The notes under the pieces are model-generated. The model saw nothing but the letters and a program-made list of their open reading frames with translations. It was not told the origin of the DNA and did no database searches. This document shows, piece by piece, positions 740-6,071 of a stretch of DNA of 6,071 nt; position 1 is the first letter of the stretch; every line of letters starts with the position of its first letter. Source of the stretch: a virus; UHGV virus genome UHGV-0378151; one strand, written 5' to 3'. A program made the position numbers and the translations under genes.

Positions 740-1210
740 TGGTTCGGCAACATTGTAAGGGAGGACGAAAAAGACAAGGATTTGCCGGAGAAGGTTGCGG
801 CTGAAATCCCCGTAATTATCCGTCGCTTGCTGGCTAATTTTGCCGACCCTGAAAAGGCACGGGCTTTATTACTGGAACAGCGCGACGGTGATGAAGCACT
901 GGCGATAAAGCAACAGACGGATCCGGTTATTGAGTTTTGCCAGTTCCTGAATTTTCTGGAGGAAGCGCGCGGCCTGATGATGGGTGGCGGTGGCGATTCC
1001 GTGAAGTACACGACCAGAAACAGCCTTTACCGCGTCTATCTGGCGTTTATGGCATACGCAGGCAGGAGCAAACCGCTAAACGTGGCTGAGTTCAGCAAGG
1101 CCATGAAGCCAGCGGCAAAAGTTTACGGACATGAATATATTACGCGGAGAGTTAAGGGAGTAACGCAGACCAACGCAATTACAACTGATGATTGTGACGC
1201 GTTTTTATAA
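419..1210 (+). CDS. Primase C-terminal domain ORF; only 741-1210 is primase-like, the first ~108 codons are antisense to the minus-strand ATPase core (likely chimeric or disrupted gene)
   Basis: ORF track 419-1210. From 741 it reads ...NIVREDEKDKDLPEKVAAEIPVIIRRLLANFADPEKARALLLEQRDGDE...DCDAFL, continuing exactly where the minus-strand fragment stops being homologous. No in-frame ATG or GTG exists between 741 and about 975. Iterons follow immediately downstream, as expected after a P4-type primase gene. Confidence 0.55.
   Translation: MCECTFTATALSGGLNKHLPVVPVRHNHVQRGTYTHHLARVFSGCVLKPFMKVWRVIADVLPWCWWRVLNAVVRGDPVLRRVRGKFPRFQVKRTIGERQQIAGRLAHWFGNIVREDEKDKDLPEKVAAEIPVIIRRLLANFADPEKARALLLEQRDGDEALAIKQQTDPVIEFCQFLNFLEEARGLMMGGGGDSVKYTTRNSLYRVYLAFMAYAGRSKPLNVAEFSKAMKPAAKVYGHEYITRRVKGVTQTNAITTDDCDAFL
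741..857. repeat. Right copy of 117-bp inverted repeat
   Basis: Reverse complement matches 1-117 with 2 mismatches; one is synonymous (GTT/GTC Val), one changes Gly to Asp. Confidence 0.9.
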
Positions 1211-1224
1211 TTTTTTGTAAAAGT

Positions 1225-1448
1225 CCTCTACCCCATCCACCTGAATGAAATAAACGCATATTATTCAACATGATAAGTGGGTAGAGGGCTAGGTAGAAGG
1301 CTAATAAAACCTCTCTACCTCTTCTACCATGATTAAGATCGTTTGTGAGGGGCGGGTAGAGGATGGGTAGAGGGCCACGAAAGCCCTCTACCCATCTGAA
1401 AGCCGCGCCATTACTGACATGAAAGATGATTAGGTAGAGAGGTAGAGG
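1225..1448. repeat. Iteron array, putative origin of replication
   Basis: About 10 copies of GGTAGAGG or near variants in both orientations: direct at 1280, 1292, 1355, 1366, 1433, 1441; inverted CCTCTACC at 1225, 1312, 1321, 1385. Includes an inverted pair GGGTAGAGGGC / GCCCTCTACCC at 1365-1393. Non-coding, directly after the primase stop at 1210. Confidence 0.7.
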
Positions 1449-1496
1449 AGGTGCACCACAACCTAAAACTTTTTAAACACGAGAGTAAAAATAAAA

Positions 1497-1775
1497 ATGC
1501 ACACATCAGGAAGATTTAACAAATCACTCAAAAAACGCAAAGACAGAACAGCACCAAGATATAAAGCGCTGGAGATGACAGAGCACGCCTTAAAGGTGGC
1601 TATAAAGGTGATAGACATCACAGCGGGAGAAGGATACTCGAAAGCACATCCCGAACTAATAAGCGCATTCATGACCACGGCGGCGGCAAACTTTGCCACG
1701 CTGACAGAGCGGGAGATTGCAGAAGCGGAACAGGTAACAACCATCAACGTTAAAACCGGAGAGCAGACAGCATGA
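1497..1775 (+). CDS. Hypothetical 92-aa protein, translationally coupled to downstream SSB
   Basis: ORF track. Its TGA stop (1773-1775) overlaps the ATG (1772-1774) of the next gene as ATGA. No family recognised. Confidence 0.5.
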   Translation: MHTSGRFNKSLKKRKDRTAPRYKALEMTEHALKVAIKVIDITAGEGYSKAHPELISAFMTTAAANFATLTEREIAEAEQVTTINVKTGEQTA

Positions 1776-2182
1776 CAGCACAGATAGCGGCTTACGGGCG
1801 GCTGGTGGACGACCCGCAGGTAAAACAGACCAGCAAGGGCACACCAATGACGCTGGCACGTATGGCGGTATCGTTGCCATGTAGTCAGGCGCAGGATGGG
1901 CAGGCTACGTTATGGCTATCGGTGATGGCATTTGGTAAGCAGGCCGACTTCCTGGCTAAACATCAAAAAGGCGACGTTGCCAGCGTATCCGGCACGATGC
2001 AGGTCAGCCAGTGGACCGGACAGAACGGGGAAACGCGGCAGGGTTATCAGGTTATTGCAGACAGCGTAATCAGTGCCCGTGCGGCACGTCCTGGCGGGAA
2101 CAGACGCAAAACCACAGGCACACAGGGTAATCAGCCACCAGCGGGAGGCGATGACCCTTACGGTGATGATATTCCGTTCTGA
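1772..2182 (+). CDS. Short single-stranded DNA-binding protein (SSB family)
   Basis: 136 aa. N-terminal OB-fold pattern resembling E. coli SSB (YGRLVDDPQVK...WLSVMAFGKQADFLAKHQKGDVASVSGTMQVSQWTGQNGETR), a Gly/Pro/Gln-rich linker, and the characteristic acidic C-terminal tip DDIPF. Confidence 0.8.
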   Translation: MTAQIAAYGRLVDDPQVKQTSKGTPMTLARMAVSLPCSQAQDGQATLWLSVMAFGKQADFLAKHQKGDVASVSGTMQVSQWTGQNGETRQGYQVIADSVISARAARPGGNRRKTTGTQGNQPPAGGDDPYGDDIPF

Positions 2183-2192
2183 GGGGGTGAGG

Positions 2193-2465
2193 ATGGTACA
2201 TGACCGCATAGCGGAGGAACTCGAGGCAAAAGGCTTTTACCGGAGGGCGGCGGCACGATGGGGTGAAGTCATGCAGCTGGTGGAGACAGACAAGGAACGG
2301 CATCAGGTTACGATGCGACGGCTGGAATGTTCCAGGAAGGCACAGAGGCCACCGGAGCCGCCGGATAACTTCGGAGACCTGAGAAAGGCAGTCGATCGCA
2401 CTTATGCTGAAATGGGTATAGATGGTGTAAGCGATGAAATATGGCGTAATTACCCAGGCAGCTAA
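2193..2465 (+). CDS. PerC-family-like small transcriptional regulator
   Basis: MVHDRIAEELEAKGFYRRAAARWGEVM... resembles the conserved N-terminal motif of PerC/Pch-type regulators as I remember it. Start taken at ATG 2193, preceded by GAGGGGG (2181-2187). The track start at 2073 would overlap the SSB 3' end in another frame. Confidence 0.55.
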   Translation: MVHDRIAEELEAKGFYRRAAARWGEVMQLVETDKERHQVTMRRLECSRKAQRPPEPPDNFGDLRKAVDRTYAEMGIDGVSDEIWRNYPGS

Positions 2466-2471
2466 TCAACA

Positions 2472-2493
2472 GCCGGAGTAATCCGGCTTTTTT
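2472..2493 (+). terminator. Rho-independent terminator
   Basis: GCCGGA-GTAA-TCCGGC hairpin followed by a run of 6 T, 7 nt after the stop at 2463-2465. Confidence 0.7.
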
Positions 2494-2505
2494 GTACCCA
2501 AAAAA

Positions 2506-2542
2506 AGCCCGATAAGTACAGGAGGCATCTTATCGGGCTTTT
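2506..2542. terminator. Second hairpin terminator, possibly bidirectional
   Basis: Perfect 11-bp stem AGCCCGATAAG (2506-2516) / CTTATCGGGCT (2529-2539) with a 12-nt loop, an A7 run upstream and T-run downstream. Confidence 0.55.
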
Positions 2543-2621
2543 GCATATGAGGTTTTTTTTGGCGCACTGACACACATGATCGGGATCATCATTTCATAAT
2601 TTGCAACACAACTCAACATCA

Positions 2622-2670
2622 TTGCATAAAATGCAATCATGATTATAATCAGATCTGGATGAACATCCAG
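2622..2670 (+). promoter_or_regulatory. Putative sigma70-type promoter with overlapping palindromic operator-like sites, upstream of the capsid operon
   Basis: TTGCAT (2622-2627), 16-bp spacer, TATAAT (2644-2649). Palindromes: TTGCAT-AAA-ATGCAA (2622-2636), perfect 12-bp TGATTATAATCA (2640-2651) over the -10, and CTGGATG-AA-CATCCAG (2655-2670) near the predicted start. SD AAGAGGA at 2689-2695 before ATG 2706. Confidence 0.45.
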
Positions 2671-2705
2671 TTATGATTTTTTAAGTCAAAGAGGAATTTC
2701 TTACT

Positions 2706-2912
2706 ATGGCTGAAGAGAAAAAAGGCGGTGTTTCGGTGTACATAAGCCCCGACATCGTGAAGGCGCTCAAGGAACGCCACCAGCAGAACGTAAAAGCAGG
2801 CATTGCGGCAGGACTTGATCCGCTGGCGATGGTTGAGCCGTCAACAGGCTGGCAGGTACGCGCCTATTTACGCGCGGCGCTGGGTATGAATCAGGTTCAC
2901 GGGGGTGAATAA
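2706..2912 (+). CDS. Hypothetical 68-aa protein, first gene of capsid operon (possible ribbon-helix-helix fold)
   Basis: ORF track. Its TAA stop overlaps the capsid gene ATG as TAATG at 2910-2914. The segment VSVYISPDIVKALKERHQQ has a strand-then-helix pattern, but this is only a guess. Confidence 0.5.
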   Translation: MAEEKKGGVSVYISPDIVKALKERHQQNVKAGIAAGLDPLAMVEPSTGWQVRAYLRAALGMNQVHGGE

Positions 2913-3967
2913 TGACAGTAAAAGCAATATCACTTAACACTAACCAGCTTTTTGCGTACCTGAATCGCGAGGATATTGCGGAATTTAAATTCAGTCCGCT
3001 GTTTACCGCGCTGTTTTTCCCGAACGTGGCGACATTCAACACACAGGACATCATGTTAGATAACCTGGATATTGAAGAAGTCACTATGTCGGCGTTTTGT
3101 TCGCCTATGGTGGGTAGCCAGGTTCAGCGCGATAAAGGGTACGAAACAAGCATTATTCGCCCTGGCTACATGAAGCCAAAACACGAAATCGATCCATTAA
3201 AAACAATAATGCGCATGGCTGGAGAAGATCCAGCACAGCTTAACGACCCTACCTACCGCCGTATGCGCCTGATTACTGGCAACATGCGCCGCCAGATAAA
3301 CGCCATTAAAGCGCGCGTGGAATGGCTGGCGGTAAATGCGGTAACGACCGGAAAAAACATCATTGAGGGCGAAGGCATAGAGCGCTATGAAATCGACTGG
3401 AAGATACCGGAAAAAAACATCATAGAGCAGGCCGACGGTAAAAAATGGTCAGAGCAGGACAAAGACATACACGACCCAATCTATGACATTGAGCTATACG
3501 CAGATCAGGCAGGTTGCCCCGCAAACGTCATGATTATGGGCGTTGATGTATGGCGCATGTTACGCAGCTTTAAAAAATTCCGTGAACTGTACGATCTCTC
3601 CCGTGGTTCAGAATCCGCCGCAGAGCTGGCATGTAAAAACCTGGGAGAAGTGGTGAGCTTTAAAGGCTATCTTGGTGATCTGGCCCTTATCGTCTATTCC
3701 GGCAAATACACTGACAGCGACGGCACAGAAAAATATTTCCTTGAGCCTGATTTGCTGGTCCTGGGCAACACCAACAATAAAGGGCTGGTGGCCTATGGTG
3801 CGATTATGGAACAGGAAGCGGTAAGAACGGGCGCAACGCAAAACATGTTTTACCCGAAAAACTGGATTGAAGACGGCGATCCGGCGATTGAGTACGTGCA
3901 GACACACAGCGCACCGCAGCCTGTTCCGGCAGATATTCGCAAATTTGTTACCGTCAAAATTGGTTAA
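2912..3967 (+). CDS. Major capsid protein, lambda gpE family
   Basis: 351 aa, colinear with lambda gpE as I recall it: FKFSPLF..LFF, RPGYMKPKHEIDP, EDPAQLNDPTYRRMRLI, WRMLRSFK, SFKGYLGDLALIVYSGKY, LVLGNT, YPKNWIEDGDPA, and a SAP...KI C-terminus. Similar length to gpE (341 aa). Confidence 0.9.
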   Translation: MTVKAISLNTNQLFAYLNREDIAEFKFSPLFTALFFPNVATFNTQDIMLDNLDIEEVTMSAFCSPMVGSQVQRDKGYETSIIRPGYMKPKHEIDPLKTIMRMAGEDPAQLNDPTYRRMRLITGNMRRQINAIKARVEWLAVNAVTTGKNIIEGEGIERYEIDWKIPEKNIIEQADGKKWSEQDKDIHDPIYDIELYADQAGCPANVMIMGVDVWRMLRSFKKFRELYDLSRGSESAAELACKNLGEVVSFKGYLGDLALIVYSGKYTDSDGTEKYFLEPDLLVLGNTNNKGLVAYGAIMEQEAVRTGATQNMFYPKNWIEDGDPAIEYVQTHSAPQPVPADIRKFVTVKIG

Positions 3968-3978
3968 CGGTGGATTCT

Positions 3979-4314
3979 ATGAACACTCCATACATTGAGT
4001 TATTTGCAGGCAGTCAGCAGGTATCAACGACGCTGGTACATTTTGCCGCTGATGCTGGCGTTATTCAGGAATTTACCCCGCTGATGCTGGCGGACAATGG
4101 CGAGTTTAAGCCGTGGGATGGTCAGGAATCTGGCAAGGCTGTTTATCTGACCTCGTACCCCGTTGACACGTCGACGCAGAAATCAGCACAGTGCTATAAG
4201 ACGGGGATATTCAATATCGCCGCCGTTAACTGGCCTGAGAGCGTCGACACCGATGCGAAAAAATGCGCCGCCTTTGCGGGTTCTGGCGTATCCGTTCAGC
4301 CGCTGGCCCGATAA
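3979..4314 (+). CDS. Head decoration protein, lambda gpD family
   Basis: TPLMLADNGEFKPWDGQESGKAVYL...CYKTGIFNIAAVNWPESVDTDAKKCAAFAGSGVSV matches lambda gpD [27 protein letters not shown]...[35 protein letters not shown]. ATG 3979 preferred; the in-frame GTG at 3970 used by the track is an alternative. Confidence 0.85.
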   Translation: MNTPYIELFAGSQQVSTTLVHFAADAGVIQEFTPLMLADNGEFKPWDGQESGKAVYLTSYPVDTSTQKSAQCYKTGIFNIAAVNWPESVDTDAKKCAAFAGSGVSVQPLAR

Positions 4315-4326
4315 GCAGGGGGAACG

Positions 4327-4740
4327 ATGGCAACGAATGAAAGCATCATGGCGCTACCGCTGGCGAGTAAATTTAAAGCCGAAGCGCGGGCAATGGCTGA
4401 CAGAGGGTTATCAACCTACGAGGCCGTATATCAACTCAACAAACTGGAAGAACAGGACAAGCCGCGCGCTGATGCGATTATGGCGCTTCATGAACATAAC
4501 GACTATCAGCCGCTGTTACGTGCAATGGCAAACGTGCCATGTATTAGCGTCGATAATGCTCGTGAAATCCTGAACATGACCATAGAGCAGGAGCGCCCAA
4601 AGGTTGCACCAGAGCTTACCGCAGCCTTTGAAAACTTTATGGACATGCACAGCCCGCAAGCCGTATCAGCTGGCATGGCATACGATGGCAGAAACCAGGG
4701 CGATGACGGCGACATCGATCACATACTGAAAACCATCTGA
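4327..4740 (+). CDS. Hypothetical 137-aa acidic protein, positioned where lambda has FI after the capsid gene
   Basis: ORF track. SD AGGGGGA at 4316-4322. No recognisable similarity to lambda FI or any other family; the functional guess is positional only. Confidence 0.5.
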   Translation: MATNESIMALPLASKFKAEARAMADRGLSTYEAVYQLNKLEEQDKPRADAIMALHEHNDYQPLLRAMANVPCISVDNAREILNMTIEQERPKVAPELTAAFENFMDMHSPQAVSAGMAYDGRNQGDDGDIDHILKTI

Positions 4741-4745
4741 GACAA

Positions 4746-4770
4746 GGCCGGAGAAATCCGGCTTTTTTTT
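4746..4770 (+). terminator. Rho-independent terminator
   Basis: GGCCGGA-GAAA-TCCGGC hairpin followed by T8, directly after the stop at 4738-4740. Near-identical to the hairpin at 2472-2493. Confidence 0.75.
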
Positions 4771-4947
4771 ACGGGTCCTTTCCGGCATATGGACCCGTTA
4801 CGGGGCGGCGACCTCGCGGTTTTTCGCTATTTATGAGCCTTTTCAGGGGGGTGGTGGTGGTTTTGTTGTTTGATCTATCTTTATGAATGAAAAGGGAAAG
4901 ATGCAAGCAATACACCAACCTGAAGCAGTAATTAAGTTGGTGTATTA
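4771..4947 (+). other. cos site 1 (plus orientation): lambda-type cosQ and cosN with a divergent cosB
   Basis: ACGGGTCCTTTCCGG...TTACG / GGGCGGCGACCT / CGCGG-TTTTTCGCTATTTATGA is almost base-for-base the lambda right-end/left-end junction as I recall it. The 12-nt cohesive-end sequence GGGCGGCGACCT is at 4803-4814. Downstream of about 4835 it no longer resembles lambda cosB. A perfect 9-bp inverted repeat TACACCAAC (4911-4919) / GTTGGTGTA (4936-4944) ends 3 nt before the ATG. Confidence 0.8.
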
Positions 4948-5490
4948 ATGAAATCTCATCTGATGAACAAAAAAAACATGGCGAAAAGCTGCCGTGTAAG
5001 TGCGACAGCGTTCGACAAGTGGGGAGTAACTCCCGTTGAGCGTAAAGGCCGTGAGGCGTTTTATGATGTTGCCAGCGTGATAGAAAATAGGGTTAACAAT
5101 GCAATTAGCCAGCTTATAAACGACAAAGGCGAGATTGACGATGATGAACTTTTACGAGTCAGGATCAGATTACTGACAGCACAGGCAGAGGCGCAGGAAC
5201 TTAAAAACGATCGCGATCGCGGTGACGTGATTGATACTGAGTTTTGCCTGTACGCGCTTTCAAAGCTGGCGAGTCAGATTTCATCAATCATGGACAGCCT
5301 CCCGCTTACTATGCAAAGGAGCTTCCCACAGATTACCCCCGCCATGCTGGATAGGCTTAAAAGGGAAGTGGTTAAAGCCTGTAATGCCAGTGCCAGAGTT
5401 GCCGACAACCTCCCACAGATACTGGCTGATTACTTGAAAGAAACAACCGGAAACGTACCGGAAAAGTTGCTACAGAAGAAAGGCGAGTAA
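4948..5490 (+). CDS. Terminase small subunit, lambda Nu1 family
   Basis: Colinear with lambda Nu1: N-terminal region (KSCRVSATAFDKWGV vs ADIFGASIRTIQNWQEQGM) and strongly in the C-terminal half (LTAQAEAQELKNDRDRGDVIDTEFCLYALSKLASQISSIMDSLPLTMQRSFP vs LTRAQADAQELKNARDSAEVVETAFCTFVLSRIAGEIASILDGLPLSVQRRFP). Alternative start at ATG 4963. Confidence 0.9.
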   Translation: MKSHLMNKKNMAKSCRVSATAFDKWGVTPVERKGREAFYDVASVIENRVNNAISQLINDKGEIDDDELLRVRIRLLTAQAEAQELKNDRDRGDVIDTEFCLYALSKLASQISSIMDSLPLTMQRSFPQITPAMLDRLKREVVKACNASARVADNLPQILADYLKETTGNVPEKLLQKKGE

Positions 5491-5712
5491 CAGACGCGCA
5501 ATTATTGAACAAAACTGAGAAACGACATGAAAGCGTCATAAATCGCCATTTTAGATGATTACCGTGTCGTTTCTTTTTATTGTGTATCTATTTAAAAACA
5601 AATAGTTATGTTCGAGAAGTACCGACATGCTTTTTCCAGAAAAATTTTCATAAACAGATAAAAACCGCGAGGTCGCCGCCCCGTAACGGGCCATAATTCC
5701 AGGAAGGACCCG
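5491..5712 (-). other. cos site 2 (minus orientation): lambda-type cosQ-cosN plus lambda-like cosB
   Basis: Reverse complement of 5661-5712 reads CGGGTCCTTCCTGG...CCCGTTACGGGGCGGCGACCTCGCGGTTTT, with a perfect match of about 30 bp to cos1 (4794-4823). Continuing on the minus strand, TTTATGAAAATTTTC, CATAACT and the inverted GAAACGACA (5519-5527) / TGTCGTTTC (5565-5573) motifs track lambda cosB closely. Complement of the cohesive-end 12-mer is at 5670-5681. Confidence 0.8.
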
Positions 5713-5745
5713 ACGACACCAGACTATCAGAACGATGGGGGCACA

Positions 5746-6027
5746 ATGACAGAAGCCGAAATACTGGGATTAATCCGCCGCGTTGCCGGAATCAGCCAGC
5801 AGGTTGACGAACAGGCCACGCAGCCGGACAGCGTGATCGCCGAAAATTACGCGCGTGTTGTTGCTGATGTGATGCGCCGTGATGGTATTGAGCTTAACGG
5901 CGTGGATATGCGCGACATACGGATCAGATTCCTTGAGTTGCTGGCCTACCGTCGCCGCGTGGAGATGTATCGGGAGAAGGAGAAAATAACGTACCACTGG
6001 AAGAAGCCGGAGCGGTTGCGGCGGTAA
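5746..6027 (+). CDS. Hypothetical 93-aa protein
   Basis: ORF track. Basic, helical-looking composition; GGGGG 4 nt upstream of the ATG. Preferred over the overlapping minus-strand ORF 5770-5997 because it is longer and follows the operon strand. No family recognised; not similar to the lambda gpA N-terminus. Confidence 0.45.
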   Translation: MTEAEILGLIRRVAGISQQVDEQATQPDSVIAENYARVVADVMRRDGIELNGVDMRDIRIRFLELLAYRRRVEMYREKEKITYHWKKPERLRR

Positions 6028-6071
6028 CTGGTTGATATTCCCGACGGACCAAAAATGGGTGGCTACATCCC

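Follow-up and report, generated by a model that had tools for sequence, protein, structure and literature searches.

Capsid and decoration genes are already known from phage-inducible chromosomal islands (PICIs) of Escherichia coli: they were published in 2018, a crystal structure of the capsid protein has been deposited (PDB 3BQW), and the idea that they might act in the manner of SaPIbov5 Ccm was tested with a negative outcome. In that work, Fillol-Salom et al. named the genes c1499 and c1500 of the island EcCICFT073, cited SaPIbov5 Ccm as a model and deleted each gene (PMC6092414); in the supplement the lengths are given as 351 aa for c1499 (capsid), 111 aa for c1500 (decoration) and 137 aa for c1501 (without an assigned function). 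Helper-dependent induction, packaging and transfer have been demonstrated experimentally for EcCICFT073 only (PMC6092414). In 2019, interference and packaging were traced to c1503, which encodes RppA (PMC6739421), and Mageeney et al. (2023) state that, of 29 reference Gram-negative PICIs, 21 have a capsid gene and that this gene is dispensable for transfer (PMC10111431). According to the paper that described capsid-forming PICIs (cf-PICIs), classical E. coli islands are packaged in large capsids as concatemers. We found no later paper that assigns a role to c1499 or c1500. Here we analyze a stretch of 6,071 nucleotides from the virus genome UHGV-0378151, referred to below in its full length as the window, which is almost certainly the right half of a classical Gram-negative PICI of the EcCICFT073 family. 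A preliminary description made from the sequence alone had presented its capsid genes as a candidate for a distinct capsid-remodelling strategy. The novelty that this implied has to be withdrawn, as the proteins are 95-96% identical to c1499 and c1500 and the analogy to Ccm was published and tested in 2018. What the present analysis adds to that description is a scaffold homologue, a satellite-only lineage of the capsid and decoration proteins and a Nu1-type small terminase (TerS) in place of Rpp.

From the primase gene to the last gene, the window has the same gene order as EcCICFT073, with which it also shares two inverted cos sites with a lambda-type cosN, and the two DNAs are 90.5% identical across 741-4844. 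They differ in the cassette between the cos sites, which holds a 180-aa Nu1-family TerS in the window and the 144-aa RppA in EcCICFT073, in the phage-21-like flank of the second cos site of the window, and in that the window does not include the half of the island with int and alpA. The TerS-type PICIs of 2018 (IHE3034 and 18098) and two of the relatives described below (L001 and L002) are islands of this same type with a Nu1-type terS. Like SaPIbov5, the island is a cos-packaged satellite that encodes a capsid homologue with the HK97 fold. However, Ccm gives small isometric capsids by redirecting phi12 and blocks the helper, whereas the EcCICFT073 orthologue did neither with lambda, and the island described here adds decoration and scaffold-like genes of its own. 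The likeness to cf-PICIs such as EcCIEDL933 lies in an E. coli island with an int/alpA/rep backbone and its own capsid protein, of a lineage apart from those of phages, but cf-PICIs additionally have genes for portal, protease, head-tail connectors, HNH and large terminase (TerL), none of which is found in the window or in its relatives.

Shell, cement and scaffold-like genes of an EcCICFT073-family island

The locus is, with hardly any room for doubt, the known 'late' module of the EcCICFT073 family, in which genes for a 68-aa protein (hyp68), an E-like, a D-like and a 137-aa protein are closed by a terminator, after which come cos1, the small-terminase cassette and cos2, the latter inverted. 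The E-like gene (2912-3967, plus strand) encodes a 351-aa major capsid protein of the lambda gpE family that is orthologous, and 94.9% identical, to c1499. Its match to Phage_cap_E (PF03864, E=3.9e-49) extends over model positions 14-328 of 329 and scores 167.9 bits, against a curated cut-off of 22.9. The PHROGs database returned major head protein (5e-107), and the solved structures matched were PDB 3BQW (E=7e-229) and lambda gpE, 7VI9 (E=4e-81). The former, titled 'putative capsid protein of prophage', agrees residue for residue with the CFT073 island capsid protein over the stretch compared and, judged by its sequence, is c1499. The D-like gene (3979-4314, plus strand, with an alternative GTG start at 3970) encodes a head decoration protein of the gpD/SHP family, the c1500 orthologue (96.4% identical), which when read from the ATG at 3979, the RefSeq start, is 111 aa, the same length as c1500. 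It matched HDPD (PF02924, E=3.7e-18) with 66.2 bits against a curated cut-off of 29.1, head decoration in PHROGs (6e-28) and, among structures, the phage 21 SHP (1TD0/1TD3, E=6e-14), with lambda gpD also matched. NCBIfam and PADLOC gave no match for any protein of the module. Both genes lie on the plus strand with E before D, whereas in lambda D (5747-6079) precedes E (6135-7160), and the pair is situated upstream of an exact lambda cosN 12-mer at 4803-4814. In all of these respects (full-length gpE-like and gpD-like proteins, in an order reversed from that of lambda, upstream of cos) the preliminary description was borne out by the Pfam, PHROGs and structure matches and by the cosN.

The same description had stated that no scaffold is encoded, and this was wrong. 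The gene after D (4327-4740, plus strand) encodes a 137-aa protein (p137; 92.0% identical to its orthologue c1501) that, by sequence comparison, is homologous to the C-terminal region of the phage-21-type gpC, a region that is scaffold-like (Nu3-like). Its match to phrog_53, a head maturation protease family, is confined to positions 494-567 of 583 (E=7e-10), i.e. the non-protease C-terminal end, and it is 37% identical to residues 416-493 of the gpC (501 aa) of a lambdoid prophage of CFT073, the two having in common the motif FExFMxxHSPxAV. A tblastn search of 50,697 phage records gave a sole match (E=2e-5), in phage 204576, at the 3' end of the gene lying upstream of D/E. When 1.8 billion proteins were searched exhaustively with a profile, a free-standing protein of 195 aa that shares the repeat and C-terminal motif of p137 (E=1e-8) was found, as well as a second such protein; two of the weakest matches of this search, P0109 and P0111, were discarded as repeat or low-complexity artefacts. 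A word-indexed protein search returned close E. coli relatives only. BLASTP of p137 against lambda Nu3 gave no match, the homology being to the phage-21-type gpC, and the AlphaFold model of p137 is all-helical and of low confidence (pLDDT 62.6). Many copies of p137 in RefSeq (P0064, P0067, P0070 and P0071) bear the name 'phage head-tail connector protein', for which no supporting Pfam or NCBIfam model was found; the detectable homology is to the scaffold-like gpC tail.

The three genes thus have counterparts in the C/Nu3, D (SHP) and E genes of lambda and phage 21, to which they are linked by the families PF03864 and PF02924 and by the scaffold-like tail found in 21-type gpC. They differ from these in sequence (E is 43-46% identical, D 37-45%, and the scaffold piece 37% over 83 aa), in their reversed order (E, D, Nu3-like) and position upstream of cos, and in being unaccompanied by B, the C protease domain, W, FI and FII. 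One homologue, P0030 (463 aa, from a Logan contig of 3243 bp), has the Phage_cap_E and HDPD domains in one open reading frame (ORF), which is the product either of a natural fusion of E and D or of read-through, in sequencing, across the intergenic gap of 2-11 nt.

That the module belongs to a satellite and not to a rearranged prophage, as had been proposed, was upheld by five full-length relatives in complete genomes (L001, L002, L004, L006 and L009), of which L006 is EcCICFT073 itself, located at NC_004431.1 1377930-1388654 in E. coli CFT073. Their gene order is int, an alpA-type regulator, icd-like or other small genes, primase, single-strand DNA-binding protein (SSB), the 68-aa ORF, E, D, the 137-aa ORF, the cos cassette with TerS or Rpp, and small terminal ORFs; a PerC gene is annotated in three of the five and the terminal ORF is the 93-aa one in four. 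The genes int and alpA lie outside the window and are present in the syntenic L001, L002, L004 and L006, which are 90-99.7% identical to it. Host genes border the island (cspD/clpS in L001, a split tqsA in L002, tRNA-Pro/yejO in L004 and roxA/phoQ in L006), and in L001, L004 and L006 chromosomal genes are close on both sides. Because the island is bounded by host genes, a rearranged prophage was ruled out. No portal, protease, large terminase, tail or lysis genes are annotated in the five relatives, nor was a complete head module with tail genes found adjacent to the island in them, and no window protein had a Pfam or PHROG match to portal, protease, connector or TerL, in agreement with the preliminary description as to portal, protease and large terminase. 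The features are those of a PICI: its own primase and iteron origin, a size of ~10-15 kb, its own attachment site, host-gene flanks, helper-type cos sites and no tail or lysis genes. A cf-PICI and a P4-like satellite were ruled out by the absence of their defining genes; the sid, psu and delta families were found neither among the window proteins (Pfam/PHROG) nor among the annotated genes of L001 and L002. The repeats next to the attachment (att) sites are 11,140 and 12,085 bp apart, which gives a unit length of 11.1-12.1 kb; one unit is about a quarter of the lambda genome and four units are 92-100% of it.

Lineage, selection and control of the capsid operon

Among the 50,697 phage records, the best match was 48% identical for the capsid protein and 45% for the decoration protein. 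Homologues 50-68% identical to those of the window occur in E. coli, Salmonella, Serratia and Edwardsiella, and all nine of the other-clade contexts are PICI-like with E before D; these contexts came from the homologous-protein search, whereas a pattern scan of genome contigs with the capsid protein matched 43 patterns and confirmed no loci. In a distance tree, the island proteins stand apart from those of lambda, of a 21-like prophage and even of a helper prophage in which an island is embedded (L016), with identities of 50-95% among islands, 38-46% between island and phage, and 59-81% among phages. On this evidence, the island capsid and decoration proteins are an old lineage that is restricted to satellites. 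Selection on the trio is strongly purifying: ratios of nonsynonymous to synonymous substitution rates (dN/dS) are 0.05-0.19 for the capsid protein, 0.06-0.34 for D and 0.05-0.29 for p137. E-D DNA was present in 598 of 5426 complete E. coli genomes, at a nucleotide identity of at least 90% in 597 of the 598.

Some related islands are embedded in helper prophages, one within the helper gene E (L012) and one within the portal gene (L016), and share the E-then-D late module family with the helper-embedded PICIs described previously (11capE; PMC10111431). The window differs from these in that its relatives L001, L004 and L006 are closely flanked by chromosomal genes, while its own attachment site is outside the window. 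A further PICI-like island with E before D (L015, 3292-12978; Salmonella, GCA_005980655.1) is situated in a P2-like prophage, with the tail-fibre genes on one side and the genes for the tail tube and gpU/gpD on the other. P2-like phages have a capsid family that is not known to be related to gpE. Were this prophage the helper, the capsid protein of the island could not co-assemble with that of its helper.

The operon begins with hyp68 (2706-2912, plus strand; phrog_3255, 8e-37), which is 98.5% identical to its EcCICFT073 counterpart and whose stop codon overlaps the start of the capsid gene (ATGA), suggestive of translational coupling. A small ORF occupies the same position in five of eight other-clade islands (L008, L009, L010, L012 and L016). 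Upstream of hyp68 lies a promoter/operator-like element (2588-2651, plus strand) with the palindrome ATTGCA-N5-TGCAAT (2621-2637), which overlaps a -35-like hexamer, and with TATAAT at 2644-2649. When seven PICI upstream regions were aligned, this element held most of the invariant columns and was clear in six of the seven, which come from E. coli and Salmonella, and across the island clades of these two genera it is conserved more than the genes 3' of it. We infer that it serves as the promoter/operator of the capsid operon. It was recognized from the alignment, a sigma-70 consensus scan of 2400-6071 having found no plus-strand promoter. A terminator scan placed hairpins 5' of the operon at 2471-2488 and ~2507-2544, and an intrinsic terminator (4744-4765, plus strand), consisting of a 9-pair stem followed by a T-run, closes the hyp68-E-D-p137 operon, which is thus insulated and separately controlled. 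The gene just upstream, as in EcCICFT073 and EcCIMP1, encodes a PerC-family regulator (2193-2465, plus strand; Pfam PerC, 2.5e-44) and is followed by the first of these hairpins. The PerC-like protein of EcCIMP1 silences expression of the enterocyte effacement locus, LEE (PMC11773190).

Possible contribution of the trio to particle assembly

Shell and cement genes persist under purifying selection though their laboratory deletion was without effect, and the question of why they do so has become more testable now that c1501 is seen to be scaffold-like, that the published markers are seen to lie inside the trio and that a variant with its own TerS is at hand. We tentatively propose, as a reading that falls somewhat short of an even chance, that E, D and p137 are matched to one another and co-evolve as shell subunit, cement and Nu3-like scaffold piece, a set that assembles on the helper portal and is of conditional benefit. 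The trio would be expressed from its own conserved promoter during helper growth and would assemble into, or join, procapsids nucleated on the helper portal and matured by the helper protease. The helper large terminase, brought to the island cos by the island's Nu1-type TerS instead of Rpp, would then fill these capsids. Four island copies of ~11-12 kb per lambda-sized head would fit the phage-sized DNA that is packaged. Since the capsid protein is carried along with its cognate cement and scaffold, it is simplest to suppose that it would build a lattice of its own, rather than supply a few odd subunits. The contribution of the trio would depend on the helper or be redundant. Taken as a whole, the identity of the island together with this proposed working is very probably the best explanation of the locus.

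A number of observations weigh against such a role. Deletion of c1499 or c1500 left both interference with lambda and transfer by the resident prophage unchanged, islands marked c1499::cat or c1501::tetA transfer well, and lambda-made particles held phage-sized DNA only, the derivative that was sized not being named in the text (PMC6092414). When the other genes located after the origin were expressed singly, none inhibited lambda (PMC6739421). A shell made by an island that encodes neither portal nor protease needs to be cross-compatible with the helper, whose capsid proteins are 38-46% identical to those of islands. In addition, transfer is still obtained with lambda, phi80 and CFT073 phage 4 when islands lack c1499, c1500 or c1501, and the authors stated that they found no phenotype for c1499 (PMC6092414). 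These experiments carry one caveat. Apart from c1501::tetA and c1499::cat, whose markers both lie inside the E/D/c1501 module, the 2018 transfer table names no marked derivative of EcCICFT073, and it was from the c1501::tetA island that c1499 and c1500 were deleted (PMC6092414). If c1501 belongs to the module, as its homology suggests, the transfer assays listed do not include an island with all three genes intact. The published conclusions are not overturned by this. Of the capsid-remodelling proposal, then, the satellite with shell and cement genes of its own stands; the remodelling is not supported, the tests of the orthologues with lambda having been negative, though with markers that sat inside the module.

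The caveat leaves room for a variant in which the E, D and Nu3-like genes function solely when all three are intact and, given a suitable helper (one like phage 21, perhaps), yield satellite shells on the helper portal, perhaps around a single ~11 kb genome; we consider this rather unlikely. Size redirection in the manner of Ccm, whereby capsid homologue, cement and scaffold piece would force small one-genome (~11 kb) capsids that exclude the helper genome, is improbable. A capsid homologue together with a scaffold-like protein whose C-terminal motif mimics the helper gpC tail does recall competing-scaffold and Ccm mechanisms, the unit length is near a quarter of lambda, and the negatives listed in the 2018 transfer table came from islands marked inside the module and from three helpers only. 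Yet particles made with lambda contained nothing but phage-sized DNA, so that interference could not be put down to size redirection, and no 'PICI monomer' band appeared on induction of CFT073 (PMC6092414). Moreover, later papers put such islands in large capsids, and Rpp fully accounts for the interference by EcCICFT073. As for the small-capsid genome that the preliminary description envisaged, the length of the element makes a small capsid unneeded, because four units fit a lambda-sized head. A further idea, put forward in PMC10111431, is that the island E and D genes are backup copies that replace helper late genes which the island interrupts or which are limiting, as the insertions of L012 in gene E and of L016 in the portal gene might lead one to expect. 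This is quite unlikely to explain the module, in that the island capsid proteins are 40-47% identical to helper E even in embedded pairs and are of an old separate lineage rather than recent captures; L016, which interrupts the portal gene, carries E and D but no portal gene, and the islands of L001, L004 and L006 have host genes closely on both sides.

Strong purifying selection on genes that are dispensable for transfer might also reflect a non-structural role, exerted on non-helper phages through decoy or poison subunits or on host defences that sense capsids, and the L015 island, inside a prophage of a different capsid family, could be accommodated by such a role. It is, however, a doubtful explanation, given that no PADLOC defence model was matched, that the genes when expressed singly did not inhibit lambda, and that a matched set of shell, cement and scaffold is most simply understood as serving assembly. 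Finally, the deletions without phenotype and the known capture of helper genes by the late zones of islands would suit a module that has no function at present, whether as the decaying remains of late genes captured from a phage or as part of an ordinary defective prophage. This is very improbable in the face of full-length ORFs with dN/dS of 0.05-0.34 across deep divergence, the near uniformity of E-D DNA among the E. coli genomes that carry it, the E-then-D order and upstream control element kept across genera, and the host-gene borders and hallmark int, alpA and primase genes. If, instead, the trio works only when intact and builds satellite shells on the helper portal, islands of this kind would be 'half capsid-forming' PICIs, an evolutionary intermediate from the classical PICI to the cf-PICI. 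The boundary between classical and capsid-forming islands would become less sharp if the module has a part in building particles.

The cos cassette and the remainder of the window

Downstream of the operon terminator, cos1 (4772-4843, plus strand), with cosN GGGCGGCGACCT at 4803-4814 directed towards terS, forms the left arm of a 72-nt inverted repeat (I2). The right arm (5641-5712) is part of cos2 (5594-5712, minus strand), which has its cosN at 5670-5681 and a phage-21-like cosB flank (I2, R3 and I1) that is 90% identical to positions 161-254 of phage 21 (M81255). The window thus contains two exact lambda cosN 12-mers in inverted orientation; the two cos sites of EcCICFT073 are functional (PMC6092414). 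Between them, in the position of rppA in EcCICFT073, lies the gene for the Nu1-family TerS (4948-5490, plus strand; 180 aa; PF07471, 3.2e-23), which is 36% identical to lambda Nu1 and 44% to N15 gp1. BLASTP gave no match between this protein and RppA, and no Rpp structure in the PDB was matched by it. The content of the cassette, which is bracketed by the inverted repeats with a perfect cosN in each, varies among islands: it encodes RppA in EcCICFT073 and a Nu1-type TerS in the window, L001, L002 and L011, is devoid of any credible gene in L004, and has its Nu1 gene on the opposite strand in L009. The small-terminase cassette thus seems to be swappable and perhaps invertible. Transfer of the TerS-bearing E. 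coli PICIs of 2018 (IHE3034 and 18098) was poor or nil (PMC6092414). Past cos2, a conserved 93-aa PICI protein (5746-6027, plus strand; phrog_1561, 3e-55) is 82% identical to its EcCICFT073 counterpart and is encoded by the final gene before attR in relatives.

The left part of the window belongs to the replication module. The 3' end of the primase gene (pri-rep; 741-1210, plus strand), with Pox_D5 and PHROG DNA-primase matches, encodes a sequence 90.6% identical to the C-terminal 160 aa of the EcCICFT073 primase. It is followed, between the primase gene and the next ORF, by densely arrayed iterons of the GGTAGAGG type, in either orientation, with an inverted repeat (I3), read directly from the sequence (1220-1460, no strand assigned). 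This array is probably the replication origin of the island, its position 3' of pri being in agreement with the location of the PICI origin in PMC6092414. The SSB gene comes next (1772-2182, plus strand; Pfam SSB, 4.8e-17), and its product is 100% identical to that of EcCICFT073. Overall, the window is a mosaic, in which the left part is 99.7% identical to L004 and L001 and L002 are 92-95% identical over 743-6071. The only Rfam match in the window, Spy1186876, scored 26 bits against a gathering score of 208 and is due to chance.

Positions 1-750 are the reverse complement of the primase segment expected there, an arm of 117 nt (1-117) being 98% complementary to 741-857, whereas the segment runs forward in L001, L002, L004 and L006. 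The inverted 750 bases look like either a fold-back artefact at the contig end or an inversion specific to the strain, by which the primase gene is disrupted. At the island ends of L001 (6694-6766 and 17834-17906) and L002 (6009-6084 and 18094-18169), a doubled GGTGTAGT(C/T)A motif lies beside att. It seems to match the 'doubled DNA motif' that was described as unique to helper-embedded PICIs (PMC10111431), yet the islands of L001 and L002 are chromosomal.

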